From a virus (Duplodnaviria; Caudoviricetes), in the IMG/VR virus record IMGVR_UViG_3300020414_000001, positions 1 to 60,906 of that record: a DNA stretch of 60,906 bases. One strand, written 5' to 3'. The position numbers and the translations under genes are program-made. A model generated the notes under the pieces. The model was not told the origin of the DNA, ran no database searches, and saw nothing but the letters and a program-made list of their open reading frames with translations. Of the stretch, positions 1-24,870 are shown one piece after another; the first letter of the stretch is position 1; every line of letters starts with the position of its first letter.

Positions 1-77
1 ACAGCTTTAGGATATGATTCTGTAGTAGCTATAACAGATAGCGAGTTGTTAGTGTCACCTCAAAAAAGAGCTGATAT
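1..77. repeat. 77-bp terminal overlap, identical to 60830-60906 (circular assembly)
   Basis: Exact sequence identity; the overlap lies inside a continuous ORF. Confidence 0.97.
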
Positions 78-3000: not shown

Positions 3001-6000
3001 TCTCCAAAGAATGGCACTCAAAGAAAAGTTTTTAGAAATATGTTCGCAAGGATTGTTACAAAGTTTAACAGAACATCAAACAGACAGATTACAATAGCAG
3101 ATGCCCAAGCAGTTTATTGGTACGGAGAAAAAAGATTATTTAAAAGTTTAGGAGTTAGAACTGGGCAAGGTAGCGACAATGATTATGTAGATGCTGCTAT
3201 AGATTTTTTAAGAAAGGAAGGCGTAAATGAAGAAACAATTGGAGAAGCACTCCCCTCAGCAGAGCGAGAGCAACGCCTTGGTGACAGAAATACCAGACAA
3301 CAAGCTCTCCTCTCTACTGGACAGGTTGCTGAAAATAACGGGTATGCAAAAAGAAAGTTTACAGAAGAAGAAATAGCTGATCGTGATGTTTTAGAATCTT
3401 TTGATAATGATGAAATAAATAATCTTAAAGAAGATATTGATAATGTTAAGTATGCATTTTTAAAAAGACCAAGTGTTAATAAAAAGAAAAGGAACTTTAC
3501 AGAAGAGCATGAAAATTCAAAGAGTGATTTTTCTGATTATGTGTATGGATTTATTAGAAGAAAGAATGCTAATAATCAAGAAGTAACTGTTCCTATATTA
3601 TATCCTACAGGAGAGCACTCTGAGATTGGGCCTTATAGATATAAGGGCTTTGGAAAAAAGCATGTTGATGCAGTAAGACCTTTAAGAGTTAGAAACAGAT
3701 TTAATAAACTTGTTGAGATTGGAGAGAAAAGTCATGCACAAGAAATAATGGATATATTTGGAGAAGGTTTTGACTCTGCTGATGAAGTTATAGAAGATGC
3801 ATTGCATAAATTTGAGTTACAACAAAGTAGAAATGTTGATTATGGAATATATCCTGACCCAGCAGAGCGGTCTGGAGAAACGTTATTTTTTGATAAATTA
3901 AAATCTTCTGGTGATAGACAGTATAGATTAGTTATATCTTTGAAAGAAGTTAAGCCCGGTCAGCCTGTTGACAAAACAGTTGCCACTGATGATGATCCTA
4001 GTGCTCCAGTCACTTTTAAATCTAGAGTTTTTGTTGTTCAAACAGCTTATCCAAAAGAAAAGAAGTATAGTTACTCAACTTTAGGTTCACCAACAATGAA
4101 TCTACAAGAAACACCAACAAGTCAAACTATATTAGAAGGTGTTGCTAACGCAAGATTAAAAATAAGATATGATAATTTATCAAAAGTTTTAGCAAGATTT
4201 GGGCATAAATTTACAATAGGAAGAGCTGATGAAGAGAAATTAAGAAAAGCTGCTCAAGATTTATTGATACAAACACAAGATAGGTTTTTGCCTATTGGTG
4301 CTTTAATGGATAAATTTAGAGAAGCTGGAGTAAATATTACAGATGCAATGGATGTGTATTTACAAGAAGAACTCTATCATGGAGTTGCTGGTGCAAAGGT
4401 TGATAAGGCTCAAAAAGAATTATTTGAACCTATGATGAAACAAGTAGATTCATTAAATGTTAGTGAAGAATCATTAAACGATTTAAAATCATTATCAAAG
4501 TTTTATAGAATAGCCTCTGGTGGAAGATATATTAGCAATAAGTTAGCACTTGCTGATGCCATCCTTTATGCATCGCATGCGGAAGAAAGGAACATAGAGT
4601 TAAATAATCCAAAAGCTTCTGGGATGCATACCAACGAGGCTAATAGAATATTAGGTTGGATTAATACTTTGCCACAAACAGAAAAAGATAAAATAAACTT
4701 AATTATAAATTCTGCAAAATCTATAGTTAAAAATACAAATGAAGAAAGAGTGCAAGGTGGTTTAATACCAGAAGTTTTTGTAAATGACAAAGGTGAACAA
4801 TATACAAATATATATGAAAACTATGTGCCATTGAGAGGTGATTTAGGTTTTGAAGAAGAAATAAATGCAGACAATAATTTTGAAGAAAGAGAAGAAAACT
4901 TTATAATACAAAATTTATTTGGAGCATTAGGTAAGCCAGACAGAAAAGCTAAAGGAAGAATTAGAAGTGATGAAGGTGGCGATTCTGATTATTATGCAGA
5001 GAATATAATAGCATCTTTATTTGCCCAAAATAATAAATCTATAGCAGACGCAGAAAGAAACAAAGTTGGTTTATCATATTTAAATTTAGTCAGAGGAATA
5101 GAAGAAGGCGAAGTCGTTGTTAACAATGATTTAAAAAAAGAAATGCAACACTTGTCTGGTGTTTATTTTAAAAAAGATGACATACCTAAACAGCAAAGAG
5201 GAGATGGCAGTCCTGATAAAGTTAAAGAACCTTTTTTGACTGTAAGAGAAAATGGCAGAGAAGTTTATATAACTTTTAATGATCCTAGAATAGCAAGGGC
5301 TATGAAAGGCATGATGACCCCAGAGAGCGTTGGTAGATTTACAAGAGCTCTTGGTAAACTTAACAGGTATTTGTCTAATATTAACACAACATATAATCCA
5401 TCTTTTGTTATACCAAACTTTGCTCGTGACTTAGCAACCGCTGGTGTTAATGTTCAGCAATATGATGAAAAAGGATTAACTTCTGAAGTTTTAAAAGGCA
5501 CATTTGGTGCAGTAAATGGCATTCGTAAAAATCTTCGTGATGGAGATACAAATAATTTTTGGTCAAAAGAATACCTCAAGTTTGTTGATGCCGGAGGAAA
5601 GAACGCAACAAACCAAATGAATGACTTGCAAGATCAAATGAACAGAATAAAAGGAATACTAAGTGATGTGTCCGATAATAGTAAAAAAGGAAAGTTAGGT
5701 TTAGTTAAAAACGCATTTAAAGGACTGGGTAAATTTTTAGATGATTACAATACAGCAGTGGAAAATGGTGTTCGTGTCTCTACTTATACAGCGTTAGTAA
5801 AACGTGGCGTTACTCCTGCCCGCGCAGCACAAGCGGCAAGGAACATAACAGTAAACTTTGCAAAAGGTGGAGAACAAAAACAATTTTTAAATTCTTGGTA
5901 TCTGTTTTATAATGCATCATTTCAAGGATCAATGGCACTTATTAATGCTGCGGTTAAATCTAAGCGTGTAAGAAAAGTTTGGGCTGGTCTTGTTGTCTAT

Positions 6001-7029
6001 GGAATTGTTCAAGATCAATTTAATGCATTTCTTTCAGGTGATGAAGATGATGATGGTGTATTAGATTATGATAAATTAAATAGACACGTTCTTGAACACA
6101 ACTTTATTTTACCTACATTTGGTTTAGCTGATGATAAATATATATCTATACCACTTGCATATGGATTGAATGTAGCAGTTAATTTAGGCCGCTCTATGTC
6201 TCGCGCAGCAAGAGGCGAGTACACTGCGGGCCAAGCATCAAGATCAATATTTGGAACTACATTTGAAAGTTTAAGCCCATTTGGTGGTTTTGATAATTTT
6301 TATAACTTAGCAGCACCTACAGTTCTGGACCCATTTATCAGTGTGGCTATCAACGAGGATTACAAAGGTGATCCAATATTTAAGGAGAGCCCTCAGTTTG
6401 CATCAAGACCTGTTCCAAATAGTCAGGCATATTGGTCAAGCACTTCTAGAATACCAAAAAGTATTGTGGACTTTATAAATACAGCCACAGGTGGAGATGC
6501 AGTAGAAAGTGGTTTAATTGATATGTCGCCAGATGTTTTGGAGTTTTGGTTTGATTATGCAACTGGTGGAGTGGGTAGATTTGTTCAAAGGTCAGTAGAA
6601 GCACCATTTAATATAATTGACGCTATCAACGGTGATTTCCAAGCTCCGATTACAACGGCAATACCATTTGCAAGAAAAGTAATTATATCTCCAAGTGAAA
6701 GGCAAGATGTATCTGATTATTTAGAAAACAGAAAAGCATTGTTTACCATAATGGCTAGGTACGATTTGGCTAGGAGGTCTGGAGATATTGATTCAATAAA
6801 TGATGTGTTAGAAGATAATAAAGAGCAATTAAGAATAGTTCCAAGATTAAAGGCTATAGATAACGCAAGAAATAGACTGTTAAGACAAATAAGAGAATTA
6901 GAAAGAAATGTTAGGTTAGACGAAACAACTAGAAAAAACTTAATTAGAATAAGAAGAGAAAGAATAAACGATCTTATGAGAAGAGGGCTTATCTTGATGA
7001 GATCTGTTGGTCTTAGAGAGGCAAGTTAA
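1..7029 (+). CDS. Giant polyvalent virion/ejection protein, C-terminal part (continues from 58157 across the circular junction; ~3233 aa in total)
   Basis: Frame is open from base 1 and in frame with the ORF starting at 58157. Contains an RAVHDYYAH domain, an HhH-glycosylase-like block (AITSNG, GSKIGSF, TMDRWF, AQAVYW), a PBECR-like block (GFGKKH...VQTAYP) and an LPD38-like C-terminus (ISIPLAYG, NEDYKGDPI, SPDVLEFWF..TGGVG). Confidence 0.85.
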   Translation, partial: TALGYDSVVAITDSELLVSPQKRADIYKGVTRTGAKQDKVPMAGGYGAISKISIQEITNIIDNSDDVLSFNPGRESAGINGVHLFVNKDGYAVKSIEGTAVHFGGKVFVKGKVNFWTEQEAPKPLDNIPTDVKYIPSEPKYSLIGKRQQEKFSKLRNEIRVNLSAATGTITGLKNLQDAANAGDEDAMTALQEVAINSVNYLTGAIPSVEVTPTPAYGLYGSALEPAVGLNIEFDTDKKDLALSALAQFASNFNQEQIHVREKAQNRLVGYKYGDGSFNTPIVTFKLSESIPKKELSSIIDKSGLAGFTVTDKSLQSYYLGDPNDRTEIRKFRAATRRAGQLLGTRVSAISTGLERLWAYGRGYGATNTYEQIEGIFPLPKTDQADRTANRIATRLAQRIVDPTIQAKTLTEQQKLLQMDIAKEYDAMSLNNLDNDIVRRAYSELAQEVTEQYNAMPIKVEIYEGQGEPYTGAKMSEAMRKDILQNNHLYIFGTDVNTFGPEGVVYDNHPLLETTGIVDINGRPMLVNDLLRAVHDYYAHTMSTVGFGPLGEEAAWRNHMIMTKSPYARWALTSETRGQNSWVNFNEQALDVEKLSDRPFAEQKVDLLPVKYLITNDQEVDATLSELQDLNLQEDDEKFSIKGIKPKSITIVNRLDDNGNFIQSAKPESVKMTNAIKKLHQEKGGVVLDIEDAQDREIAERAILIELKEFVNADESAIGWYDDKIKTAKKLYAIKIPEIANDKNAESAFDFALAITSNGEAVKSQSSSIKRQMENWKTTGRFLEDNQGNQATGMTKSFKVYNLLKDKGLTDQDIKQFLQIKKSKKEIETLPEIQELNQFLNKDIKITGELIDEMVPMSFIFGSKIGSFYQNIIGNYEYLTMDRWFMRSMNRIFGTPFKIIKPDTLTKNRREALDGINDALENGTADEKTRIKVATDELGIDIINESNIVDLSIIINNKLQKDIERVGRAGPTKPFIEKTKTDMLKATQRLAENSVDTLQESPKNGTQRKVFRNMFARIVTKFNRTSNRQITIADAQAVYWYGEKRLFKSLGVRTGQGSDNDYVDAAIDFLRKEGVNEETIGEALPSAEREQRLGDRNTRQQALLSTGQVAENNGYAKRKFTEEEIADRDVLESFDNDEINNLKEDIDNVKYAFLKRPSVNKKKRNFTEEHENSKSDFSDYVYGFIRRKNANNQEVTVPILYPTGEHSEIGPYRYKGFGKKHVDAVRPLRVRNRFNKLVEIGEKSHAQEIMDIFGEGFDSADEVIEDALHKFELQQSRNVDYGIYPDPAERSGETLFFDKLKSSGDRQYRLVISLKEVKPGQPVDKTVATDDDPSAPVTFKSRVFVVQTAYPKEKKYSYSTLGSPTMNLQETPTSQTILEGVANARLKIRYDNLSKVLARFGHKFTIGRADEEKLRKAAQDLLIQTQDRFLPIGALMDKFREAGVNITDAMDVYLQEELYHGVAGAKVDKAQKELFEPMMKQVDSLNVSEESLNDLKSLSKFYRIASGGRYISNKLALADAILYASHAEERNIELNNPKASGMHTNEANRILGWINTLPQTEKDKINLIINSAKSIVKNTNEERVQGGLIPEVFVNDKGEQYTNIYENYVPLRGDLGFEEEINADNNFEEREENFIIQNLFGALGKPDRKAKGRIRSDEGGDSDYYAENIIASLFAQNNKSIADAERNKVGLSYLNLVRGIEEGEVVVNNDLKKEMQHLSGVYFKKDDIPKQQRGDGSPDKVKEPFLTVRENGREVYITFNDPRIARAMKGMMTPESVGRFTRALGKLNRYLSNINTTYNPSFVIPNFARDLATAGVNVQQYDEKGLTSEVLKGTFGAVNGIRKNLRDGDTNNFWSKEYLKFVDAGGKNATNQMNDLQDQMNRIKGILSDVSDNSKKGKLGLVKNAFKGLGKFLDDYNTAVENGVRVSTYTALVKRGVTPARAAQAARNITVNFAKGGEQKQFLNSWYLFYNASFQGSMALINAAVKSKRVRKVWAGLVVYGIVQDQFNAFLSGDEDDDGVLDYDKLNRHVLEHNFILPTFGLADDKYISIPLAYGLNVAVNLGRSMSRAARGEYTAGQASRSIFGTTFESLSPFGGFDNFYNLAAPTVLDPFISVAINEDYKGDPIFKESPQFASRPVPNSQAYWSSTSRIPKSIVDFINTATGGDAVESGLIDMSPDVLEFWFDYATGGVGRFVQRSVEAPFNIIDAINGDFQAPITTAIPFARKVIISPSERQDVSDYLENRKALFTIMARYDLARRSGDIDSINDVLEDNKEQLRIVPRLKAIDNARNRLLRQIRELERNVRLDETTRKNLIRIRRERINDLMRRGLILMRSVGLREAS

Positions 7030-7054: not shown

Positions 7055-7134
7055 CTAAAAGTTCGTGATTTTAATACTCCTTCTTCTCGCAGCCCGAATC
7101 GGCATGACAGAAACATACTAAAAGTTCATGATTT
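7055..7134. repeat. 17-bp direct repeat CTAAAAGTTCRTGATTT (7055-7071, 7118-7134)
   Basis: Two copies with one mismatch, 63 bp apart. Confidence 0.8.
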
Positions 7135-7221
7135 CATGACCCTATCTCTGAGCCCACGCACCTGCGTTTTTAGACGGAGGTACTAGAACGCCACCCCAAT
7201 CCCTTGGGCTCTACTGCGAGA
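7085..7221 (-). ncRNA. Candidate structured RNA at the end of the leftward operon
   Basis: GC-richer intergenic segment with nested stems UCUCGCAG/CUGCGAGA, GAGCCCA/UGGGCUC and CAGAGAUA/UGUUUCUG; the G-U pairs favour the minus strand. Confidence 0.5.
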
Positions 7222-7269
7222 GGCATAAATACCTCTCTTGTTTTGTAACTTAATCTAGTGGGATTGTGG

Positions 7270-9983: not shown

Positions 9984-10771
9984 TATTTTTCTCCTTGTTT
10001 AGTATTGTCTTTTAACCATTTCATTAACTCTGTATGTTTTTCACTATCTTTTTCTTTGTATAGATCAAACAATTCTTTATTTAATTCCCACAACTCAATA
10101 GCTTTGTCATAGTCATTTCCAGACAATTCAACAAAACCTTTCATTGTAGTTATAAAGTCTTCTTCAGAAATTACCTTTTGCTCTCCATCATTTAAGTCTT
10201 TGAAGTATTTTATCTCTCCAAAGAACGGAACAACCTCAGCATTAGGAAAGTGTTTTTTGATTTCTTTTACAGTTTCATCTTTTTCTGCAAGTTTATCTAA
10301 CTCTTTCTTACCATCAAAAATTTCTTTTTTTGGTGGGTCTGCCTTTGGTGGATCAGATTTTTTAAATTCATCAGCCTCTTCTTCAGAGTAAAAATCTCCA
10401 TGCACACCTAATAATTTTAAGATAACTCTGTCGATTGCTCTTTTCTCAGCCATAGCGTAGATGTATTTGTTAGATGTATTTTGTGGACTTACTTCTCCAA
10501 TAGACCAAGCAGTATTCTTCCCCTTGCCATCATCTATGTAACCTTGAACAGACAAAGCAACTATGCCTTTTTCTGTACTGTTTTCAATCATGGTCGGTGG
10601 GTCAAACCACATACCTAAATGTGCAGAGACCTTTTCTAGTGCTTTGTGTTTTACTATTAAAGCGTTCCTATTCTGAGGCAAAGACCAAACTGCACTATTT
10701 CTATCTTTTACATCAACGATCTCTCCAACCTCTTGTAAAAGTTTTTTTAGTTTGTCGTTTATCTCTGCCAT
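9983..10771 (-). CDS. Putative single-strand annealing protein (Rad52/Erf-like)
   Basis: SIGE...N...Y.YAMAEKRAIDR.ILKLLG..G.FYSEEEAD; neighbours an exonuclease. Confidence 0.6.
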   Translation of the reverse strand: MAEINDKLKKLLQEVGEIVDVKDRNSAVWSLPQNRNALIVKHKALEKVSAHLGMWFDPPTMIENSTEKGIVALSVQGYIDDGKGKNTAWSIGEVSPQNTSNKYIYAMAEKRAIDRVILKLLGVHGDFYSEEEADEFKKSDPPKADPPKKEIFDGKKELDKLAEKDETVKEIKKHFPNAEVVPFFGEIKYFKDLNDGEQKVISEEDFITTMKGFVELSGNDYDKAIELWELNKELFDLYKEKDSEKHTELMKWLKDNTKQGEK

Positions 10772-11034
10772 TACTTAACTCCAAAAATAATCTTAAACCA
10801 TCTTACTAAGAAAAAATCTTTTTCTGGCTTTTGTGCTTTATCTGTAGCTTCTCTTATGTGAGAAACTGGCACTTTGGGTTTTGAGGCTTTCTTTATTTCT
10901 GCCTTTACCTTAACATCAGCTTTAACAAAAGCCTCGTTTTCTGGTGTGTCTGGATTGTCTGCGACAAATCTACCCTTGCTAGTTCTTGCTCTTTTCAACT
11001 TACTTGCAGTTTCTTTAGTTTTCTTCTTTGCCAT
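10771..11034 (-). CDS. Basic hypothetical protein
   Basis: RARTSKGRFVADNPDTPENEA motif; packed ORF. Confidence 0.7.
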   Translation of the reverse strand: MAKKKTKETASKLKRARTSKGRFVADNPDTPENEAFVKADVKVKAEIKKASKPKVPVSHIREATDKAQKPEKDFFLVRWFKIIFGVK

Positions 11035-11974
11035 TTTTCACTCCTTTGTTGTATTGTTGACAAAAATCTGCAACGGAACAATAGTTGCCCTTGCATCTGT
11101 TATATTCGCCTTGACGAAAATCTATTTCATAGCCACCAGTATATTTAGGCATATAGGCACTATCTGTATTTTTATGCCATTCCATATACTTGATAGCCTC
11201 TTCTTCTGTATCTAAAACTCTTAATGCTCTTTTCTGTGCTTTCTTTCTAACTGCCCAACTGTCTTTCTTTTTCCATCTCTCGTCATCAGAGCATAGGGGT
11301 AATTTATTTTGCAGATCGTAATTTATTTGAGCGTTTTGATGTAAGGAAATTCTTTCGTTTATATATTTTTTTCTTTCCTCTGGTGTCCATAAAGGTATAT
11401 CAACCAACACAACTGGTGTTTTGGGATAGTCCTCTTTTTTCTCAGCGTCTCTTCTATTCCAATCTCTTAGTATGGCACATATGTTTAGCTTGTTTACTTT
11501 CTTTTTTTCTTTTGAGAAAGGTGTAAAAACTGCATGGTAATTTTGTTCACATAGGTAGGCATAGCAGTTTAACTGCCTCTCCCATTCTATCTTTCCAAAG
11601 ATAACAGACCAAACAGAGGTAACTTTGTAATCAACTATGTTAACACTACCATCTTTTTTATCTATCTCTTGCCTATCAATAGCACCAGAGAACTTCCAAC
11701 CATTTACCTCTGCATACAATCTTTGCTCTGTCTCAGAAAACATTGTGTCTTCAGACCTTTCAAGAATGGCATGAACTGATGTTCCAAACAAAGACCATAT
11801 CTGATCTACTGCATCTATTTCTATTTCATCTTGGTGTTTTTGCCTCATCAAGGCAACTCTAGGACTATCAATAAGTGAGGTTACTGATATATCAGCATCT
11901 CCTCTGCTATACTTATCGTTTTTAATAAAATCAACAAAAGGTTGTGGTAACCCAAATTTATTGGTAATCTTCAT
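11015..11974 (-). CDS. PD-(D/E)xK exonuclease (Cas4/RecB-like)
   Basis: ISVTSL, GTSVH, E.R, GAID, IVDYK, QLN.YAYL and C-terminal Cys residues. Confidence 0.85.
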   Translation of the reverse strand: MKITNKFGLPQPFVDFIKNDKYSRGDADISVTSLIDSPRVALMRQKHQDEIEIDAVDQIWSLFGTSVHAILERSEDTMFSETEQRLYAEVNGWKFSGAIDRQEIDKKDGSVNIVDYKVTSVWSVIFGKIEWERQLNCYAYLCEQNYHAVFTPFSKEKKKVNKLNICAILRDWNRRDAEKKEDYPKTPVVLVDIPLWTPEERKKYINERISLHQNAQINYDLQNKLPLCSDDERWKKKDSWAVRKKAQKRALRVLDTEEEAIKYMEWHKNTDSAYMPKYTGGYEIDFRQGEYNRCKGNYCSVADFCQQYNKGVKNGKEEN

Positions 11975-11999
11975 GTAAACTCCTATGTGTTAGTTTCTA

Positions 12000-12027
12000 T
12001 GTATATCATGCAGTAACATTATGTCAA
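12000..12027 (-). promoter_or_regulatory. Putative sigma70 promoter of the leftward recombination operon
   Basis: TTGACA (12027-12022)-N16-TATACA preceded by TGn. Confidence 0.5.
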
Positions 12028-12413
12028 ATAAAATTTATCCATCAACTAAATTTGTTATTTACGGAGAACCAGCAAGTAAAAGCAATAGCAGAAAAATCGT
12101 TAAATTTGGAAAAAGATTTGGCGTAATAAAATCAGAAAAAGCTAGGAACTATGTAAAGATATTTGCTGAACAATGCCCACAATTAGAAAAACTTATTGAA
12201 CTTGATGTCAAAGTTGAGATAAAAATATATTATCAATCAAGGAGACCAGATTTAGATGAAAGCGTGATATTAGATTGTATGCAAGGAAAGATATATGTTA
12301 ATGACAGACAAGTTAAACAGAAACATATATTCTGGGGAATTGATAGGGAACAACCCAGAACTCACATCAGAGTTACGCCTATGGAGATTTGTGATATGCC
12401 AAGCGATTTCTGA
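12021..12413 (+). CDS. rusA: RusA-family Holliday junction resolvase
   Basis: GEPASKSN, RRPDLD, D.MQG.IY.NDRQV. Confidence 0.85.
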   Translation: MSNKIYPSTKFVIYGEPASKSNSRKIVKFGKRFGVIKSEKARNYVKIFAEQCPQLEKLIELDVKVEIKIYYQSRRPDLDESVILDCMQGKIYVNDRQVKQKHIFWGIDREQPRTHIRVTPMEICDMPSDF

Positions 12414-12624
12414 TAGTTATCTAGGCACGAACAAAGAAAAGATAACCATAGGACTTTGGATAAGAGGAGATGACTTTACAAAAGTATGCGATCTTGCTGA
12501 CTTAAATTCAGAGAATGTTAGAAAATCTATTTACGAAATATTAATAAGCAAACCAATTATTGCCAGACATCTTGGCGAGAAGTTAAAAAAATTCATACAA
12601 AATCACGCCTCAAGACATCACTAA
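12295..12624 (+). CDS. Hypothetical protein
   Basis: LW..VI.QA..D...W....DF..VC.LA pattern typical of phage hypotheticals; start uncertain. Confidence 0.65.
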   Translation: MLMTDKLNRNIYSGELIGNNPELTSELRLWRFVICQAISDSYLGTNKEKITIGLWIRGDDFTKVCDLADLNSENVRKSIYEILISKPIIARHLGEKLKKFIQNHASRHH

Positions 12625-12697
12625 CTAGATTAGTTCTACTAGTCTAGTATAATATATATTATAACTACTAGACTAGTATAATACTAGTACTAGTATA
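12624..12697. repeat. CTAG-rich palindrome array 1 (candidate replication origin)
   Basis: 7 CTAG; TACTAGTCTAGTA inverted pair around an AT palindrome, then ATACTAGTACTAGTAT; upstream of primase-helicase. Confidence 0.75.
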
Positions 12698-12787
12698 AGG
12701 GGGTTCTAAAAGTTTTGAATTTTAATTTTCATTTTGAGATTTTTGTGGCAGCCAAAAAATTACGAAGACTTAACATCTTGAACTTAT

Positions 12788-12803
12788 AAGTTAAAATTAA
12801 CTT
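12788..12803 (+). promoter_or_regulatory. Palindromic motif, copy 3
   Basis: AAGTTAAAATTAACTT abutting the probable -35 of the primase-helicase gene. Confidence 0.7.
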
Positions 12804-12864
12804 TTGTCTTGATTATGGATTATTTTATGATTATGTTTTTCGTTGTAACACATGGAGTAAATTA

Positions 12865-14664
12865 ATGGAAAATAGTGAAAGCATCAAGAGTGATGCATTA
12901 AGATTAGGGAGTGGTCAACATAAAGTTAATTGTCCATTCTGCACCCACCTTAGAAAAAAGAAACATTTAAAAACTCTGTCATTAAAAGTAGAAGAGAAAA
13001 GCATTTTCTTTAACTGTTGGCATTGCTCAAAAGATGGAGTGATAAAGATAAAGCAAGACAATTTTAAATTTATACGGAGAGAACCTTTGAGCCAGACGAT
13101 AGAAAAGAAATGGAATGATATTGATAATAATGTTGTAACTTATTTAAAATCCAGAGGCATATCAAAAGATACTGCGATTAAATCTGGATTAAAATATACG
13201 AAACAATTTATATCTGGCACTAACAAAGAAGAGAACTGCATAGTTTTTCCATACTTTAACAAAGGCAAAATGGAATATGCAAAGCTGAGAAGTTTTCCAG
13301 AAAAAGGATTTTCAAGTCATGGTTCAGCATTGAATTTTTACAACATAGATAGTGTTGAGGAAAAGGATTGGGTTATTATTTGTGAGGGAGAAATAGATTG
13401 TTTAAGTTTTAAAGAGATTGGATTAAACCAAGTTGTTTCTATTCCTCATGGTGCTGTAATGAAAGTTACAGACGGAAAAATAGACCCACAAGAGGACACA
13501 AAGTTTAGGTTTATTTGGAACGCTAAATCAAAACTAGATAAATGTAATAAAATTATATTGGCATTGGATAATGATAAATCTGGTCAAGCTATGGCTGAGG
13601 AGATAGCCAGAAGAGTTGGTAAGGATAAATGTTGGAAGATAGAATACCCAGATGGTTGTAAAGATGCCAATGAAGTTTTGGTTAAATTTGGTGTAGAAAA
13701 ATTAGACGAGATAGCTACGAGACCAATACCTTATCCAGTAAGTGGATTGTATGATGCAGAACATTTTTATGAGGAAGTTGATGATATTTACGACAAGGGT
13801 GTAGGTACAGGAATATCGACAGGGTACAAAGATGTAGACGATATTTATACTGTTGTTGAGGGTCAGCTATCTGTGGTAACAGGACACCCCTCTTCTGGTA
13901 AATCTGAGTTCATAGATCAGATAATGGTCAATATAGCAAAAGAAAAAAATTGGAAGTTTGGCATATGCTCTTTTGAGAACGAGCCAAGAATACACATATC
14001 AAAACTTATTAGTAAGTATTTAGAGAAACCTTTTTTTGGAGATGCATCTAAACGTATGTCAAAAGAAGAATTAAAAGAGGGAAAGGAGTTTGTACAAAAA
14101 CATTTTAGTTTTTTGTATCAAGCTGATGGTAGTTTATCTTCTCTTGATAGCATCATAACCAGAATGAAGATTGCAGTTATGAGGCATGGGGTTAGAGGAA
14201 TAATTATAGACCCTTATAACTACATAGCCAGAGATCAAGACACTTCTGAAACAGATTGGATATCTGAGATGCTTACAAAGTTAAGAGTATTCGCACAAGC
14301 ACATAGTATACATATTTGGTTTGTTGCACACCCAACTAAGATGATGAGACGAGATGACGGCACAGTACCACCACCTAAAGGATATGATATTTCTGGAAGT
14401 GCATCATGGTTTGCTAAAGCTGATGTTGGATTAACAGTTCATAGACCAAATCCATCTTATTCTGATATCAGCGAGATATTAGTTTGGAAATGTAGATTTT
14501 CTTGGGTGGGTGCTATAGGTCAATGCAGTTTGTTATTTAACAAATTAACAACGACATATTCCTCTACTAGCGAGTACTATGAAAGAGATAAATTCTTAGC
14601 ACCAAGACCTATTGAGGGGTCTGTAAAAACTGAAGAACCAGATAAAGATGAAGTCCCATTCTAA
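12865..14664 (+). CDS. Primase-helicase (Twinkle/T7 gp4 type)
   Basis: Zn finger CPFC/CWHC, TOPRIM CEGEID and DND, KDANE, Walker A GHPSSGKS, IDPYN, VAHPTK, DISGSA. Confidence 0.95.
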   Translation: MENSESIKSDALRLGSGQHKVNCPFCTHLRKKKHLKTLSLKVEEKSIFFNCWHCSKDGVIKIKQDNFKFIRREPLSQTIEKKWNDIDNNVVTYLKSRGISKDTAIKSGLKYTKQFISGTNKEENCIVFPYFNKGKMEYAKLRSFPEKGFSSHGSALNFYNIDSVEEKDWVIICEGEIDCLSFKEIGLNQVVSIPHGAVMKVTDGKIDPQEDTKFRFIWNAKSKLDKCNKIILALDNDKSGQAMAEEIARRVGKDKCWKIEYPDGCKDANEVLVKFGVEKLDEIATRPIPYPVSGLYDAEHFYEEVDDIYDKGVGTGISTGYKDVDDIYTVVEGQLSVVTGHPSSGKSEFIDQIMVNIAKEKNWKFGICSFENEPRIHISKLISKYLEKPFFGDASKRMSKEELKEGKEFVQKHFSFLYQADGSLSSLDSIITRMKIAVMRHGVRGIIIDPYNYIARDQDTSETDWISEMLTKLRVFAQAHSIHIWFVAHPTKMMRRDDGTVPPPKGYDISGSASWFAKADVGLTVHRPNPSYSDISEILVWKCRFSWVGAIGQCSLLFNKLTTTYSSTSEYYERDKFLAPRPIEGSVKTEEPDKDEVPF

Positions 14665-15109
14665 AAAATTCTATCAACGAGACCATAGGAAGATAAAGCC
14701 AGAGTTCGTTGGTAATACAAATAAAGTTAGAATGAGGGTTGTAGATCAAACAATCCTAGATACGCTATTGCTAACAGATACTATCATGCTTTCTGATTAC
14801 AAGATACTAGACAAGCTACAAGGCGATTATAATAAATCTGGAATGGTAGGAGTGAAAGCTACAAGCTATATGATTAAGCCTAAAAGTTCTGGATTTGAGT
14901 TCTCTCACAATTTAGGACGCATGAAAGTGATGAGTTGTGTTCAGTATATTAAGGACAAGTTAGGTGGTGAATACCAAAAAATATTATTAAAATTGTTAGA
15001 TGATAATAAATTATCTAATAAAGAATTAGAATGGTTTGGGGATAATAAAAAGGTGGGAAAGCTATCTACGATAGTTAATGAGTTCTATAATTTGTGGAAT
15101 AAAGGTTGA
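14648..15109 (+). CDS. Hypothetical protein
   Basis: Overlaps the helicase stop; same operon. Confidence 0.7.
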   Translation: MKSHSKKFYQRDHRKIKPEFVGNTNKVRMRVVDQTILDTLLLTDTIMLSDYKILDKLQGDYNKSGMVGVKATSYMIKPKSSGFEFSHNLGRMKVMSCVQYIKDKLGGEYQKILLKLLDDNKLSNKELEWFGDNKKVGKLSTIVNEFYNLWNKG

Positions 15110-15134
15110 CATGGAACTTCTGCAAGACTAATTA
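15106..15134 (+). promoter_or_regulatory. Putative sigma70 promoter for the small RNA
   Basis: TTGACA-N17-TAATTA with no plus-strand ORF downstream. Confidence 0.5.
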
Positions 15135-15140
15135 TATATT

Positions 15141-15188
15141 TGAGGAAACTCATTATGTGTTACAAAGGGGAGTAAAAACTCCCCTTTT
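15141..15188 (+). ncRNA. Candidate ~50-nt antisense sRNA
   Basis: UGAG-GAAA-CUCA hairpin, unpaired UUAUGUGUUAC, then a terminator; the seed is complementary to three RBS regions. Confidence 0.55.
15164..15188. terminator. Intrinsic terminator between convergent units
   Basis: AAAGGGGAGT-AAAA-ACTCCCCTTT hairpin with U-tail. Confidence 0.85.
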
Positions 15189-15196
15189 ACTTTTAA

Positions 15197-15212
15197 AAGT
15201 TAAAGTTAACTT
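15197..15212 (+). promoter_or_regulatory. Palindromic motif, copy 4
   Basis: AAGTTAAAGTTAACTT, flanked by AA/TT. Confidence 0.7.
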
Positions 15213-15446
15213 TTAGTCTCTTGTATAATTCACGATTAGTGAAGTGCCAAACATGGTAAACAAAATACCAGATAAAATATATACAGATGCAACAGACCAG
15301 ATAAAATAATCAAAGTAAGTTGCTAAAGAAATAGTGGTCTCTGATGTCTCCAGTATAACAAAAGATACTGGGATAGTGCTGAAACCAAACAAAATTAAAC
15401 ATATTCCAACTATAAGTCTGGAATGATCTATTAAAAAATTAATCAT
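15213..15446 (-). CDS. Small membrane protein (2 TM)
   Basis: Two hydrophobic segments; AAGGAG RBS. Confidence 0.75.
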   Translation of the reverse strand: MINFLIDHSRLIVGICLILFGFSTIPVSFVILETSETTISLATYFDYFIWSVASVYILSGILFTMFGTSLIVNYTRD

Positions 15447-15470
15447 GTGTTACTCCTTTTTGATTAGAAA

Positions 15471-15540
15471 ACCATACAGAGGGTGGTAAAATCTTAGGGT
15501 GCAATCATACCCAGAGATATTGTTTCGCCTCTGTATGGCT
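15471..15540. repeat. Inverted-repeat element CCATACAGAGG...CCTCTGTATGG with inner GGGT/ACCC stem
   Basis: 11-bp perfect arms; one arm recurs at 22240-22251. Confidence 0.7.
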
Positions 15541-15721
15541 CTTAAATCAAGATAATTTGGTTAGTTTCTATGTCTTAAATGGTGTATATTGCCATGATGC
15601 ACATTTTTACCCACCTACAAGAGCGATTACTAATGAGGTAGGGGAACTCATGTATTAGGGAGACATAGCATTGGATAGAGGCACTAACCAGACCTCTCTT
15701 AGGAGAGCATCATTCCCCAAT

Positions 15722-15817
15722 TCAAATAAAGATTATATATAAAAAAAGTAGAAATACTATTGCCATGTAAAACCCTAGCATCTCTACAAATAATTTAAGC
15801 CATTCAATCAAGTTCAT
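15722..15817 (-). CDS. Small hydrophobic peptide (31 aa, not in ORF track)
   Basis: MNLIEWLKLFVEMLGFYMAIVFLLFLYIIFI; GAGGAG RBS. Confidence 0.5.
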   Translation of the reverse strand: MNLIEWLKLFVEMLGFYMAIVFLLFLYIIFI

Positions 15818-15995
15818 CAAATAACTCCTCTGAATGTCCCTCGTTATTATTCTCTTGATCTGCATAAGGTTTGACAATCTGTATCATCTTATCAAGTCTT
15901 TTCATGTAATCCTCTTTATATCCATGAAAAGTAATTTGCTTTTCAACATCAAGTCTTAACTCATACAACATAGTTAATAGTTCAATCATTGGCAT
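15804..15995 (-). CDS. Hypothetical protein
   Basis: ATG at 15995 follows an AGGAG RBS (track start 16046 less likely). Confidence 0.6.
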   Translation of the reverse strand: MPMIELLTMLYELRLDVEKQITFHGYKEDYMKRLDKMIQIVKPYADQENNNEGHSEELFDELD

Positions 15996-16005
15996 AACAA
16001 ATCTC

Positions 16006-16377
16006 CTATCTCTCAAAGCTACCAAATGTTTTAATCTGCCAATCATGTATTTCTTTCATACATTCTTCAGTAGATTTCTTTTCCTCTGGAATAAAAACTT
16101 TAGTTCTGACCATGTAGTGATCGTCATCAGCTTTCATATCATTGTATGGCATCTTATTAATTAGGGCATCAGTATAATTTTCTTCAACCCATTCTTCTAC
16201 TGCATTACTAATAACCCATCTGACTTCCTCACAAAATTCCTTTGGAGTATTTTCTTTAGCCAACTGAACACCTTGCTTGTCATCAGATGAACCATGAAAG
16301 ACCTCTTTTAAAAACCAATTAAATCTTTCTTCATCAAGGGTAAATTCCCCTTTAAATTTTACAGTTAATTTCTTCAC
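16006..16377 (-). CDS. Hypothetical protein
   Basis: Packed early-operon ORF. Confidence 0.7.
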   Translation of the reverse strand: MKKLTVKFKGEFTLDEERFNWFLKEVFHGSSDDKQGVQLAKENTPKEFCEEVRWVISNAVEEWVEENYTDALINKMPYNDMKADDDHYMVRTKVFIPEEKKSTEECMKEIHDWQIKTFGSFER

Positions 16378-16379
16378 TA

Positions 16380-16571
16380 TTAATATCCTCTCTTTATTAT
16401 GTTTAGTGATTTATTTAAGAGTAAAGCTAACTCTGTAGATTGGTCAGTTCTTTTCTTCATAAGTCTACTGACCTCTTCATTAACTACACCCTCGATCTCT
16501 AACATAGCCTCTGACCATGTTAAATCTTTTGGTGGTAAATCCACCCATGTTTTTATTTTATTCATTGCCAT
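16380..16571 (-). CDS. Hypothetical protein
   Basis: Packed early-operon ORF. Confidence 0.65.
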   Translation of the reverse strand: MAMNKIKTWVDLPPKDLTWSEAMLEIEGVVNEEVSRLMKKRTDQSTELALLLNKSLNIIKRGY

Positions 16572-16818
16572 CTTCCCACTCCTCTATTCTTGATAACAAT
16601 CCCTCTGCACATTCACTTCTTCCAAAAAATACTTCTGGTGCATCAGCAATATTTTCTGGTTCTTCTCCATCAGAAATACGAGTTTGTATTTCTTGATATG
16701 TATTAACCTCATCAACTAACCAAGATTTAATTCTGCTTATGATTTGTGCTTGGCTATCCAGAGCAGACCTAGTGTTATCTAGTTCTGTCTGTAATGCTTT
16801 TATTAAATGTTTAGTCAT
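16558..16818 (-). CDS. Hypothetical protein
   Basis: Packed early-operon ORF. Confidence 0.7.
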   Translation of the reverse strand: MTKHLIKALQTELDNTRSALDSQAQIISRIKSWLVDEVNTYQEIQTRISDGEEPENIADAPEVFFGRSECAEGLLSRIEEWEDGNE

Positions 16819-17046
16819 TTAGTACCCACTTTCTGTTATTCTAATCATTTTATCTACATAAGATTTAAATTCATCTTCAAGTAATGGTCTCTCTCTTATT
16901 CCCCAATACATGAAGACAACATTACTAGGCTCTCGTCTCCTAGTAATGTTATGAACAAAATAAATCTCTCCATCATCTGATACCTTGTACTTTGGTGCAT
17001 AGGTGTAACCTTTATGCATAAAGATATATTTTTCTTTAGCTTTCAT
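16819..17046 (-). CDS. Hypothetical protein
   Basis: Packed early-operon ORF with AGGTG RBS. Confidence 0.7.
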   Translation of the reverse strand: MKAKEKYIFMHKGYTYAPKYKVSDDGEIYFVHNITRRREPSNVVFMYWGIRERPLLEDEFKSYVDKMIRITESGY

Positions 17047-17054
17047 GTTAGCAC

Positions 17055-18182
17055 CTATATATCCAGAGCATTGGCAATGCCAGATACAACTCTGCCAGAC
17101 ATAGTTCTTTCAGCTATTGATAAACTCTCATTACAAGCAGTATGGCACTCTCCAAGAGTATCAAACCTATGAGGTGCAAAAGTCCTCTCTGGGTTGTCAA
17201 AATTTTGCTTACCCTCTGGGTGTCTTGCCCATTTCTTAGCTTGGTAAGATATCAAAAACAAATCTTGGATTAATGATATCTCTCCATTCTTAGAAGAAAC
17301 TATATCAGCTTTGTAAACATCAAAACCTTTATCTTTTAATCTTTGTATTGGCTTAGGATTGGCTTTAATAACCATACAAGGTCTGCTTTTATAAATAACA
17401 GTAGATAAACCATGTCTGTAAACATTGAGATACCAAAGGCTTGGAACTTCAATAGCGTTATCTTTGTAATAGTCATATTCTTTCTTCTTAACATGAGGCT
17501 GAACAACGTAACCATCTCCTTGAATACATGGATTTTCATCTTTGATAACTCTTTTATCTTGTCTTCCATCACTACCATACTTGTCTTTAGATAAACCATC
17601 TTGACCAAATACACCTAATCTAACATCTGTTCTCTGGTGTTTTTCTCTCCACCATTCAGAGGCAACCTCTAAGGATATCCTCGCCCATTTTTTAGTAATG
17701 TCTGCTTTCTCATGATACTTTTCATCAAGTAAAGAAAATCTTTTAGCAGTAGTTCTATACTGTTTAACAGATGAAACTAAGTCAGCAACAAATTCAAATG
17801 ACTTTCTTCTGTCATACTCTACATCTTCGTATAAGGATTTTAACTTATCATTAAACTCTGAATTTCTCTTAGGCTTTGAGTAACCATGATAATTGCCATA
17901 ATTTCCATGTTGACCTTTTTCATAGTAAGTTACTAAGTCAGCCATTTCATCATTAGTAATGCCATAGATTTCTTTAAAGGCAACCAACATCTTTTTATTT
18001 TTACTAGCCAGATAATAGTCAAAAGCAGATATACAATGCTTTTTATTTGTATGGTCATCTCTTGTTCTGTATCTGGTTTTCTCTTCATTAACGATAGGGT
18101 TTTCAACAACACTATCTCTATAGTCTCGTAAATATTTTACAAAATTATTAAAAGTAAAATTATCTTTTTTCGTAATAGTCAT
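17055..18182 (-). CDS. Hypothetical early protein (375 aa)
   Basis: Long ORF with GGAG RBS; no recognised motif. Confidence 0.8.
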   Translation of the reverse strand: MTITKKDNFTFNNFVKYLRDYRDSVVENPIVNEEKTRYRTRDDHTNKKHCISAFDYYLASKNKKMLVAFKEIYGITNDEMADLVTYYEKGQHGNYGNYHGYSKPKRNSEFNDKLKSLYEDVEYDRRKSFEFVADLVSSVKQYRTTAKRFSLLDEKYHEKADITKKWARISLEVASEWWREKHQRTDVRLGVFGQDGLSKDKYGSDGRQDKRVIKDENPCIQGDGYVVQPHVKKKEYDYYKDNAIEVPSLWYLNVYRHGLSTVIYKSRPCMVIKANPKPIQRLKDKGFDVYKADIVSSKNGEISLIQDLFLISYQAKKWARHPEGKQNFDNPERTFAPHRFDTLGECHTACNESLSIAERTMSGRVVSGIANALDI

Positions 18183-22372: not shown

Positions 22373-22858
22373 ATGTCAGATAAAAAAAATAAACCAGACT
22401 TAAAAATAGTCAGCTCGAATAAAAAACCAGATGAAAATAAACTTACGAAAAAACAACTTGGATTTATAGAAAGTATACTAAATGGAAAATCTTTAGTTGA
22501 AAGTTATTTAGAGCATTACCAAGTCTCGCCTAAGACTAAGAATAGCACAATAAGACATATGGCAAGTCAATTAAGAGCTAACCCAAACATTACCCAAACT
22601 CTTAATAAGAGAATAGAGGAAAAGAAGAGGAATAACTTAGCGACAGAACATAAAATAAAAGATCACTTATTAAATTCATTGTTGGGGTTTATTAATGATG
22701 ATGCTGAAAGTACTGCTAATAAGTTAAAAGCTATAGAGATGTATGGTCGTAATCTGGATTTATGGAAACAGAATATTGTTATTGAGGAAAAGAATAACAG
22801 TTCTACAGAAGTTGAAACAAGACTTAGGGAAAAACTAGGTAAACTTCTGGAAAAGTAG
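22373..22858 (+). CDS. terS: Terminase small subunit
   Basis: LTKKQ..F HTH start, AS.L..NP.I, KLKAIEM.G..L; upstream of terL. Confidence 0.8.
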   Translation: MSDKKNKPDLKIVSSNKKPDENKLTKKQLGFIESILNGKSLVESYLEHYQVSPKTKNSTIRHMASQLRANPNITQTLNKRIEEKKRNNLATEHKIKDHLLNSLLGFINDDAESTANKLKAIEMYGRNLDLWKQNIVIEEKNNSSTEVETRLREKLGKLLEK

Positions 22859-23150: not shown

Positions 23151-23357
23151 TTGTCAAACATTATTTATCTAAGTGATTATAGAAAGAAAACCATAGAAGA
23201 AGAACCAGAACTTCGTAATCCAATTGTGATAGGTTGGGATGAAGATGATTCTTTGTACATTGCCTCATCTGTTGACACAGATGAATGTTTGTGGATGATA
23301 GACATAGCTAAAAAGATTATGGAAACAAGTCCACCAGATATAATTACAAATGAATGA
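23151..23357 (+). CDS. Hypothetical protein
   Basis: AGGAG RBS; IVIGWDED..LY.ASS motif. Confidence 0.75.
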   Translation: MSNIIYLSDYRKKTIEEEPELRNPIVIGWDEDDSLYIASSVDTDECLWMIDIAKKIMETSPPDIITNE

Positions 23358-24870
23358 GATTGCTCAAATAATAAAAAACAACATGGGGAAGATAGATAAT
23401 CTACCTCATGATGAAAAACTAGAAGTGCTACAGCTTTTAGAAGAATATGAAAAAGCAAAATCAAAAGAACAAGCTCGTGATGAGTTCCTTCCCTTTGTAA
23501 AATCTCAATGGGCAGCTTTTATACATGGCAGGCATCATGAGATAATGGCAGAGGCATTTGAGAGAGTGGCCCGGGGTGATTTAAAAAGATTAATAATCAA
23601 TATGCCACCCCGTCATACTAAGTCAGAGTTTGCAAGTTATTTATTCCCAGCATGGTTTTTAGGGAGGTACCCCCAAAAGAAAATTATTCAGACTGCACAC
23701 ACAGCTGAGTTATCTGTAGGATTTGGAAGAAAGGTTAGGAATCTTATTCAGTCTGAAGATTTTAAAAATATTTTCCCAGACGTAACTTTGTCAGCGGATT
23801 CAAAGGCGGCGGGTAGATGGTCCACAAACAAAGGCGGTGAGTATTTTGCGATAGGTGTAGGGGGTGCGGTAACAGGTAAAGGTGCTGATGTTCTTGTAAT
23901 TGATGATCCTCACTCAGAACAAGAGGCTACGATAGGTGATTATAACCCAGAGGTGTATGACAAAGTGTATGAATGGTACACTTCAGGACCAAGACAGAGA
24001 CTACAGCCCGGTGGAGCTATCATTTTGGTGATGACCAGATGGTCAAAAAGAGATTTAACAGGGCAAATACTAAAAAATTATACCCAAAGAGAGGGCTCAG
24101 GGGAGTGGGAGGTCATAGAACTGCCTGCGATCATGCCTTCTGGTGATGCTTTGTGGCCAGAGTTTTGGAAAAAAGAAGAATTAGACTCACTAAAAGCCGA
24201 ATTACCTGTCTCTAAGTGGAACGCGCAGTACCAACAAGACCCCACATCAGAGGAAGGGGCGCTAATTAAACGTGAATGGTGGCAAGAATGGACAAAAAAT
24301 GACTTACCGCCTTGTGATTCCATCATACAATCATGGGATACGGCATTTTTAAAGACACAAAGAGCTGATTATAGCGCTTGTACCACGTGGGGAGTGTTTC
24401 ATGCGCCTGATGATGAAGGAAGGACACGCCCTAACCTCATTTTAATTGATGCATACAAAGAAAAACTAGAATTTCCTGATTTAAAACGAGCAGCATACGA
24501 TAAATACTGGGAATTTGAGCCAGATCAGATGATTATTGAGGCTAAGGCGGCAGGTTCACCCTTAATTTTTGAATTACGAGCAATGGGAATACCAGTTACT
24601 GAGTTTACACCGAGCCGTGGACAGGATAAGATAGCAAGAGTTAATGCAGTTACGGATTTATTTGCCAGTGGAGTTATCTGGCACCCACCAACAAGGTGGG
24701 CAGATGAGGTTATAGAGGAATGTGCGGCTTTTCCTAGTGGAGACCATGATGACTTTGTTGACTCAACCACGCAGGCGCTGTTAAGATTTAGGCAAGGTGG
24801 TTGGATCAGAACAACAATGGATGAATGGGATGACGAGCCAAAGTACAGAAGACCAGTGGAGTATTATTAA
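23350..24870 (+). CDS. terL: Terminase large subunit
   Basis: PPRHTKS, TGKGAD..IDDP, YQQDP, SWDTA, HDDFVDSTTQAL. Confidence 0.97.
   Translation: MNEIAQIIKNNMGKIDNLPHDEKLEVLQLLEEYEKAKSKEQARDEFLPFVKSQWAAFIHGRHHEIMAEAFERVARGDLKRLIINMPPRHTKSEFASYLFPAWFLGRYPQKKIIQTAHTAELSVGFGRKVRNLIQSEDFKNIFPDVTLSADSKAAGRWSTNKGGEYFAIGVGGAVTGKGADVLVIDDPHSEQEATIGDYNPEVYDKVYEWYTSGPRQRLQPGGAIILVMTRWSKRDLTGQILKNYTQREGSGEWEVIELPAIMPSGDALWPEFWKKEELDSLKAELPVSKWNAQYQQDPTSEEGALIKREWWQEWTKNDLPPCDSIIQSWDTAFLKTQRADYSACTTWGVFHAPDDEGRTRPNLILIDAYKEKLEFPDLKRAAYDKYWEFEPDQMIIEAKAAGSPLIFELRAMGIPVTEFTPSRGQDKIARVNAVTDLFASGVIWHPPTRWADEVIEECAAFPSGDHDDFVDSTTQALLRFRQGGWIRTTMDEWDDEPKYRRPVEYY

Follow-up and report, generated by a model that had tools for sequence, protein, structure and literature searches.

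A candidate trans-acting small RNA at the end of a marine phage primase-helicase operon covaries with the ribosome-binding regions of the primase-helicase and exonuclease genes

We know of almost no regulatory RNAs from uncultured marine phages. Here, we describe a short noncoding unit in IMGVR_UViG_3300020414_000001, a contig of 60,906 base pairs (bp; G+C 36%) that comes from an uncultured marine phage, carries phage genes, and was analyzed over its whole length (the window). Positioned at the 3' end of a primase-helicase operon, the unit is predicted to encode a small RNA (sRNA) of about 50 nucleotides (nt). Its seed is antisense to the ribosome-binding sites (RBSs) of the primase-helicase gene and of an exonuclease gene on the opposite strand, including their Shine-Dalgarno (SD) sequences, and changes together with both in related phages. 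The locus contains the following features, including open reading frames (ORFs):

11015-11974, minus strand: gene for a PD-(D/E)XK exonuclease, first gene of a leftward operon, with its ATG at 11974
11977-11992, minus strand: target 2, the exonuclease leader TAACACATA-G-GAGTTT
12843-12858, plus strand: target 1, the primase-helicase leader TTGTAACACAT-G-GAGT, which matches the seed over 11-12 bp and then 4 bp on the SD sequence
12865-14664, plus strand: primase-helicase gene (fused Toprim and DnaB_C), with its ATG at 12865
14648-15109, plus strand: ORF of 153 amino acids (aa) with no recognised family, last gene of the primase-helicase operon, with the sRNA -35 box at its end
15106-15111, plus strand: -35 box TTGACA, whose TGA (15107-15109) is the stop of ORF 14648-15109
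15129-15134, plus strand: -10 box TAATTA, after a spacer of 17 nt
15141-15152, plus strand: 5' hairpin TGAG-GAAA-CTCA, with which the RNA is predicted to begin
15148-15165, plus strand: seed ACTCATTATGTGTTACAA, antisense to the target leaders, with 15153-15163 unpaired in the minimum-free-energy fold
15164-15194, plus strand: Rho-independent terminator (stem 15164-15187, then a T-rich tail), which also terminates the primase-helicase operon
15445-15453, minus strand: proposed target 3, GTAACACAT between the SD sequence and the ATG of a membrane-protein gene (15213-15446)

Promoter, GAAA hairpin, seed, and terminator are thus all present where the initial annotation had placed them. A consensus scan prefers AATTAT (15130-15135) as the -10 box, with a spacer of 18 nt and 10 of 12 matches. 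The terminator scores best of the five terminator-like sites within 10000-18000, and the predicted 52-nt RNA (15141-15192) folds into hairpin, single strand, and terminator at -19.1 kcal/mol (z -4.71), a value reached by none of 200 shuffles. A predicted promoter and a predicted intrinsic terminator of its own around a short noncoding unit are what is expected of a trans-encoded sRNA. The seed contains ACTC and CTCAT, which are anti-SD and anti-ATGAG words, and the usual ribosome site of this genome is TAGGAG(T/A). A scan of the whole window against Rfam 15 returned no matches at gathering scores. The earlier statement that the unit holds no ORF needs qualification: a mechanical 36-codon frame opening with TTG (15106-15216) is listed, and no SD sequence precedes it.

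The initial annotation had also described the seed as complementary to three initiation regions. The three sites are indeed there, and the 18-nt seed forms predicted duplexes of -17.3 kcal/mol with the primase-helicase leader, -14.5 kcal/mol with the exonuclease leader, and -15.0 kcal/mol with the membrane-gene site. Both main targets lie within very short leaders. Upstream of the exonuclease gene, a promoter-like TTGACA-17-TATACA occupies 12028-12000 on the minus strand, its -35 box overlapping the ATG of the RusA gene on the opposite strand (the consensus scan omitted it because its -10 box ends in A), and a promoter-like TTGTCT-16-TATGAT precedes the primase-helicase gene at 12804-12831. 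Judging from these positions, the exonuclease messenger RNA (mRNA) would start 1-2 nt before the seed-paired stretch, and the primase mRNA a few bases before its own.

Taken within the window, these matches do not stand out. Allowing up to one mismatch, GTAACACAT occurs 15 times (17.85 expected); TAACACAT occurs five times (3.65 expected), a count reached in 29 of 100 shuffles. Among random genomic 18-mers (n = 1500), the best match was as good in 11.9% and the third-best as good in 6.2%. The three sites had been expected to head the list of initiation regions, which is true of the primase-helicase leader (rank 1 of 86); the other two rank 3 (tied) and 5, with two unrelated genes in between. 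Being at chance level, such window-only statistics (motif counts, duplex energies against random 18-mers) were not used as support, and the finding is significant only through the relatives, in which seed and leaders covary.

Relatives were collected with the primase-helicase. A first scan yielded 11 viral contigs, and a scan with an alignment of five primase-helicases yielded 489 relatives; the analysis continued with the best 80 of them (58-99% identity). Among 83 entries (82 relative loci and the window), 66 were usable and represented 46 distinct leader/seed/terminator combinations; those left out were 12 entries with less than 450 nt downstream, L068-L070 and L086 (mismatched start), and L014 (contig ending inside the unit). 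All 46 distinct units have a GC-rich terminator 398-628 nt past the primase-helicase stop, behind one small gene, and in all 46 the 20-30 nt before this terminator are complementary to that phage's own primase-helicase leader. TTGAC stands at the homologous place in 44 of the 46, followed in 43 by exactly 17 nt and a hexamer beginning with TA. It is found in three coding contexts involving two unrelated upstream genes: it provides the in-frame TGA stop of an upstream gene of ~155-180 aa, encodes Val-Asp ahead of the stop where the upstream gene is an unrelated one of ~100 aa, or falls within the coding end. Therefore, coding alone fails to explain TTGAC. The architecture of the RNA is conserved as well: in 19/19 lineages, the representative RNA (49-77 nt) folds as 5' hairpin, open seed, and terminator, with the predicted start at the foot of a hairpin whose sequence varies between lineages (L004, for instance, keeps the stem with a GCAA loop). 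Of the 42 distinct RNAs, the 22 in groups B and C were aligned with MAFFT (A to D are informal labels for leader/seed classes; the 20 in A and D were left out), and RNAalifold recovered 6 terminator pairs from them, a low yield because this alignment is not structure-aware; single-sequence folds were relied on instead.

Seed and leaders change together across these lineages. For 40 distinct units, cognate duplexes with the primase-helicase leader averaged -16.23 kcal/mol against -11.41 kcal/mol for non-cognate ones, and those with the exonuclease leader -16.76 against -11.29 kcal/mol. When the pairing was permuted and the sum compared with the observed one (an earlier version used 37 units), 0 of 20000 permutations were as good for either target, counts that overstate independence because the lineages are related. 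As a control, the leader of the next gene past primase-helicase showed no cognate advantage (-6.38 against -6.75 kcal/mol; 17702 of 20000 permutations as good). Ranked among the initiation regions of its own locus (16.45 per locus on average), the primase-helicase leader comes first or second in 26/40 units and the exonuclease leader in 34/40, and both are in the top three in 32/40. The proposal that the seed is antisense to the RBS regions of these two genes is strongly supported by the conservation of the unit and by this cognate-specific covariation. An accessible seed that evolves in compensation with distant mRNAs, next to a negative control leader, is the pattern of a trans-encoded sRNA.

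About 15 sequence classes of leader and seed were counted by eye. Examples, given as leader with seed, are TTGTAACACATGGAG with CTCATTATGTGTTACAA, TTGCGTAGGAG with CTTCTTACGCAA, ATGCATAGGAG with CTTACTATGCAT, TGTGTAGC with GCTACACA, TATAGCA with TGCTATA, GTTCTATGGAG with CTCCATAGAAC, AGTTCTTGGAGGAA with TTCCTCCAAAGAACT, and GTCGTGGAG with CCTCC..CCACGAC. The compensatory changes that the initial annotation had called for in related genomes were found, in at least six separate sets (by eye). Between L036 and L028, whose primases are 88.5% identical, GCG becomes GTG in both leaders and CGC becomes CAC in the seed. L031 and L033 differ by one seed base that is matched in the exonuclease leader, and L077 and L081 (91%) differ in leader and seed in a compensated way. 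Between the window and L004 (80%), the exonuclease leader TAACACATA is replaced by TAGCCTATG, four positions having changed together with the seed; in the primase leader one position changed with the seed, and two others became mismatches.

The membrane gene did not survive this comparison as a target. L013 encodes a 97% identical protein and has the same seed, and its initiation region is entirely different. Homologues of this gene were found only in the window, L013, L002, and L004, and L004 lacks a matching site; the site in the window is probably due to chance or very recent.

Several side observations concern the relatives' units. CTCC, a second anti-SD word, occupies the apical loop of the terminator in 24 of the 46 distinct units (L015, L017, L021-L028, L033-L045, and L052-L064; an automatic flag gave 26 units, two of which have CTCC in the stem), and the loop in the window lacks it. 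In L015 and L023, the terminator loop matches 8-9 nt of the cognate primase-helicase leader. A role of an sRNA terminator loop has precedent in Escherichia coli, according to excerpts of PMC11979758. Two tandem terminators follow the seed in L067:6134-6260. Group B units have an SD-like GGTGGG and then an ATG in the -10 region, and L021-L045 share a conserved G-run, GGTGGGAT, directly 5' of the -10 box, which is SD-like and followed by an ATG; this G-run is more likely a promoter spacer or an extended -10 element. The unit was also considered as a small ORF, a reading that we rejected: the frames in relatives range from 6 to ~31 codons or more (by eye) and are unconserved, and groups A and C lack an ATG at this place.

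We consider it likely that a base-pairing sRNA masks the RBSs of the first genes in the two divergent DNA-metabolism operons. In the proposed mechanism, the plus strand from 15141 to ~15192 would encode a noncoding RNA of ~50 nt, transcribed from a sigma-70-type promoter of its own (the -35 box overlapping the stop of the last operon gene) and ending at the terminator that also serves the primase-helicase operon. The single strand between the 5' hairpin and the terminator would pair with the short 5' leaders of two mRNAs, spanning the SD sequence and the 6-11 nt before it (12843-12858 and, on the minus strand, 11977-11992). Ribosome loading would thus be blocked, and less primase-helicase and exonuclease protein would be made. 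Transcription from the internal promoter is suggested by its conserved sequence. Repression seems more plausible than activation because the pairing covers the SD sequence itself, and the RNA probably lowers translation of both genes. Since the covarying exonuclease leader is on the other strand, the RNA must act in trans. Moreover, because no terminator separates the operon from the unit, every operon transcript would also carry the sRNA sequence at its 3' end; transcripts ending in seed and terminator could let the element feed back negatively on its own operon. With its own promoter and a place at the operon 3' end, the sRNA level would rise with operon transcription and genome copy number, which would fit feedback or a replication-to-late switch. 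The biological purpose may lie in timing, a carrier state, or superinfection control, as the initial annotation proposed.

Metatranscriptomes offer a hint of expression. In a run search, four runs hold small shares (0.05-0.16) of a 3-kilobase (kb) stretch. RNA-library contigs belonging to two studies span the unit and some sections of the operon (uncovered sections carry no meaning): X1 record 3 extends over 15083-15226 with 0 differences, and X4 record 17 over 15053-15203. On the other side, these contigs say nothing about transcript boundaries, strand, or level, and some of the library material may be DNA. One X1 contig tracks the unit to 15170 and then continues into a different terminator loop and tail; therefore, a variant of the unit co-occurs in the X1 sample.

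Several findings weigh against the base-pairing sRNA. Its complementarity within the single genome stays at chance level, the -10 box is weak, and the region shows no excess of promoter-like sites (32 found, 35.2 expected). A scan of L069, standing in for L068-L070, gave no obvious unit, and none was recognised in L086, of which only the region upstream of the match was read by eye. When each leader was scanned over the whole locus on both strands, the seed window was not always the best partner: for the primase leader it ranked 1-9 in 12 of 15 representatives (21, 23, and >40 in the others), and for the exonuclease leader 1-8 in 12 of 15 (>40 in L076, L077, and L081). Three representatives have a weak exonuclease target or none, its rank being 13 in L077, 10 in L078, and 6 in L081. 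The strand controls are also close. The opposite-strand primase control is nearly as good as the sense strand (-15.25 against -16.23 kcal/mol), the sense strand being better in 25 units, the opposite strand in 14, and one tied; for the exonuclease, the corresponding counts are 24, 15, and 1. The numbers of G.U pairs show no difference between strands in free duplex predictions. The free-energy control favors RNA weakly.

These points can be read in three other ways. One would deny any function, the terminator region of an ordinary operon being complementary to purine-rich RBSs by chance; the chance-level numbers of the window and its unconserved third site agree with this, and we nonetheless hold it very unlikely indeed, given that no permutation in 20000 equalled the cognate pairing of either target, that the control leader was negative, and that three-way compensatory changes separate close relatives. 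Another would do without a separate sRNA: the element would be only the 3' untranslated region (UTR) of the operon mRNA, engaged in cis pairing between the 5' and 3' ends or released by processing alone, and the promoter would be unused. The position of the -35 box inside the end of the last gene, the weak -10 box, and the fact that full-length operon transcripts must end in seed and terminator speak for it, and sequence cannot separate processing from an own promoter. It appears rather unlikely all the same, considering that TTGAC-17-TA is kept in 43 of the 46 distinct units across coding contexts, that the predicted start falls at the foot of the 5' hairpin in 19/19 lineages, and that the exonuclease leader, covarying from the opposite strand, needs a trans RNA of whatever length.

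The third possibility is that the seed word is a DNA operator, a phage protein binding the same asymmetric site at both leaders and at the operon end and the sites coevolving with its specificity. A 9-16-bp word present three times at regulatory places would covary in this case as well, and the duplex energies of the two strands separate RNA from DNA weakly, as noted above. This reading nevertheless looks very unlikely to us. Past a conserved promoter, the open linker that joins a conserved hairpin to a terminator is the exact location of the third copy, and the word always takes in the SD sequence, in gene sense. Within the helices, single mismatches in the proposed strand sense are of the G.U type in 6 contexts, of the A.C type in 0, and other in 1, a count (in a fixed register) drawn from a small number of contexts that are not independent of one another. 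In L048, the two leaders use different parts of the seed region: the exonuclease leader forms 13 pairs (one of them G.U) with the 5' part, the primase leader pairs with the 3' part, and the leaders have only the SD sequence in common. There is thus no common DNA motif in L048, and a protein operator would need one. An operator independent of orientation, which the initial annotation had named as the finding that would overturn its proposal, is made improbable by the G.U-type mismatches and by L048, the strand energies contributing little. A palindrome, AAGTTAA-N2-TTAACTT, adjoins the primase-helicase promoter (12788-12803) and recurs directly past the sRNA terminator (15197-15212). A perfect-arm palindrome lies 3' of the terminator in 15 of the 46 distinct units, one clade using another word, AAACTTTACGTAAAGTTT. 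The palindrome may be bound by a phage DNA-binding protein, which would then bracket the operon, and it is a better candidate for a protein operator than the seed word.

Among known systems, the base-pairing sRNA proposed here appears closest in placement and logic to OppZ and CarZ. As described in excerpts of PMC7398697, these are autoregulatory sRNAs of Vibrio cholerae derived from 3' UTRs, which pair with the transcript of their own operon and inhibit its translation, providing post-transcriptional negative feedback. In both cases, the RNA lies at the operon 3' end and shares the operon terminator; here, pairing with the first RBS of the operon's own mRNA is predicted, and it covaries. According to the same excerpts, RNase E releases OppZ and CarZ, which lack a promoter of their own, whereas a conserved predicted promoter lies inside the end of the last gene here. 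Members of the OppZ and CarZ class depend on Hfq. The promoter-like element here argues for at least partly independent transcription. The present RNA further differs in being viral and in its predicted targets, which are the RBS of the first cistron and a second mRNA, that of the exonuclease, from the opposite strand.

The antisense RNAs of the c4 kind have an Rfam family of their own (C4 antisense RNA). c4 controls an antirepressor, and the CI RNA of satellite phage P4 controls the operon holding the primase-helicase gene alpha and acts by transcription termination; both are processed from the operon leader, upstream of or between their targets. In contrast, the present RNA is a simple hairpin-seed-terminator unit placed at the operon 3' end, after two genes, and not in the leader of the operon that it would control. 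No match to the C4 family was among the Rfam 15 results for the window at gathering scores, and no sign of the C4 fold was seen. Excerpts of PMC12197685 describe c4 of P1 and P7 as an antisense phage RNA that is encoded in the same operon as its targets and pairs at a distance, the seed and target of P1 and P7 differing in a compensated way (heteroimmunity), as is found here between relatives. With respect to type-specific compensated seeds, c4 would be the closest system, together with the CI RNA of P4.

CopA of plasmid R1 is a constitutive small RNA whose dose follows copy number and which limits translation of the replication initiator. RNAs of this type are encoded opposite the target leader, whereas the present RNA is encoded elsewhere and has two targets. 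Small cis-antisense phage RNAs include sar of P22, which blocks translation initiation of ant, and OOP of lambda (excerpts of PMC12197685). The candidate resembles them in that a small phage RNA would block a phage gene by pairing with its mRNA; sar and OOP are, as far as these excerpts go, transcribed opposite their target and fully complementary to it, whereas the pairing here is short and imperfect and the targets, at 12843-12858 and 11977-11992, are 2.3 and 3.2 kb away, which sets the unit apart from the cis-antisense class. Stand-alone trans-acting phage sRNAs are also covered there: VpdS of VP882 (~50 nt) affects phage and host mRNAs, and PreS of lambda (~88 nt) acts on dnaN (PMC12197685). 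Our candidate would likewise be a stand-alone, phage-encoded, and trans-acting RNA; in the excerpted account VpdS and PreS have mainly host targets and compete for Hfq, in temperate phages, whereas here the phage's own replication and recombination genes covary. A full-text literature search, which did not extend to the older P4 CI and c4 papers, found no description of an sRNA directed against a phage's own primase-helicase leader.

The unit probably represents an RNA family without an Rfam match that occurs in many related viral contigs and has the phage's own replication and recombination genes as targets. To judge from excerpts of PMC12197685, the phage sRNAs covered by this review mainly affect host genes or the lysogeny switches of temperate model phages. 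The ~15 natural seed/leader types amount to a ready-made series of compensatory mutants, with which the mechanism could be examined in a laboratory host with no need for a culture of the phage, and which could also serve as a set of orthogonal riboregulators. More tentatively, and with considerable doubt on our part, we speculate that the RNA and the two leaders act as a type-specific "RNA lock" on replication, comparable to the heteroimmunity of P1/P7 c4 or to plasmid incompatibility. If so, the sRNA of a resident or first phage would silence the primase-helicase and exonuclease of later genomes with the same seed type, and the phage would also meter its own replication by gene dose. Escape pressure would then drive the lock-step diversification of seeds and leaders among co-circulating marine phages, which would fall into RNA-defined exclusion groups. 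Lytic marine phages would thereby gain an RNA-based form of replication control or mutual exclusion.

Elsewhere in the window, the following genes were located:

12021-12413, plus strand: RusA
22373-22858: small terminase
23350-24870: terminase large subunit (TerL)
25090-27522: portal

TerL is 52-56% identical to its counterparts in Pelagibacter phages HTVC027P and HTVC023P and in two uncultured or unassigned phages, and the structural genes are akin to those of HTVC023P-type pelagiphages. The primase-helicase is at most 31.7% identical to any deposited phage homologue, and none of the 50,697 deposited phage records matched the window at the DNA level. HTVC027P and HTVC023P were considered as cultured carriers and rejected: the packaging gene is common to them and the window, but their primase, helicase, and polymerase are separate and they lack the module. 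No cultured carrier of the sRNA module was found by comparison with these two phages or in the DNA search against deposited phages. A search for prophage copies in 185,579 species genomes gave 52 pattern matches, none of which is a relative, and hence no host clue. No integrase-like, repressor-like, or other lysogeny genes were seen among the 24 window ORFs screened, and a transfer RNA scan of the window found none.

The exonuclease-headed operon ends in a noncoding stretch (7085-7240, minus strand) that the initial annotation called a folded RNA. Dense CTAG-containing repeats (ACTAGT or CTAGTATAAT-like) fill 12624-12700, between ORF 12295-12624 and the primase-helicase promoter, and may represent an origin or stacked -10-like boxes. 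Finally, a reading frame is open at both contig ends, at 58157-60904 (916 aa, 3'-open) and 1-7029 (2342 aa, 5'-open); the two would join as one ORF of ~3250 aa if the contig is circularly permuted.

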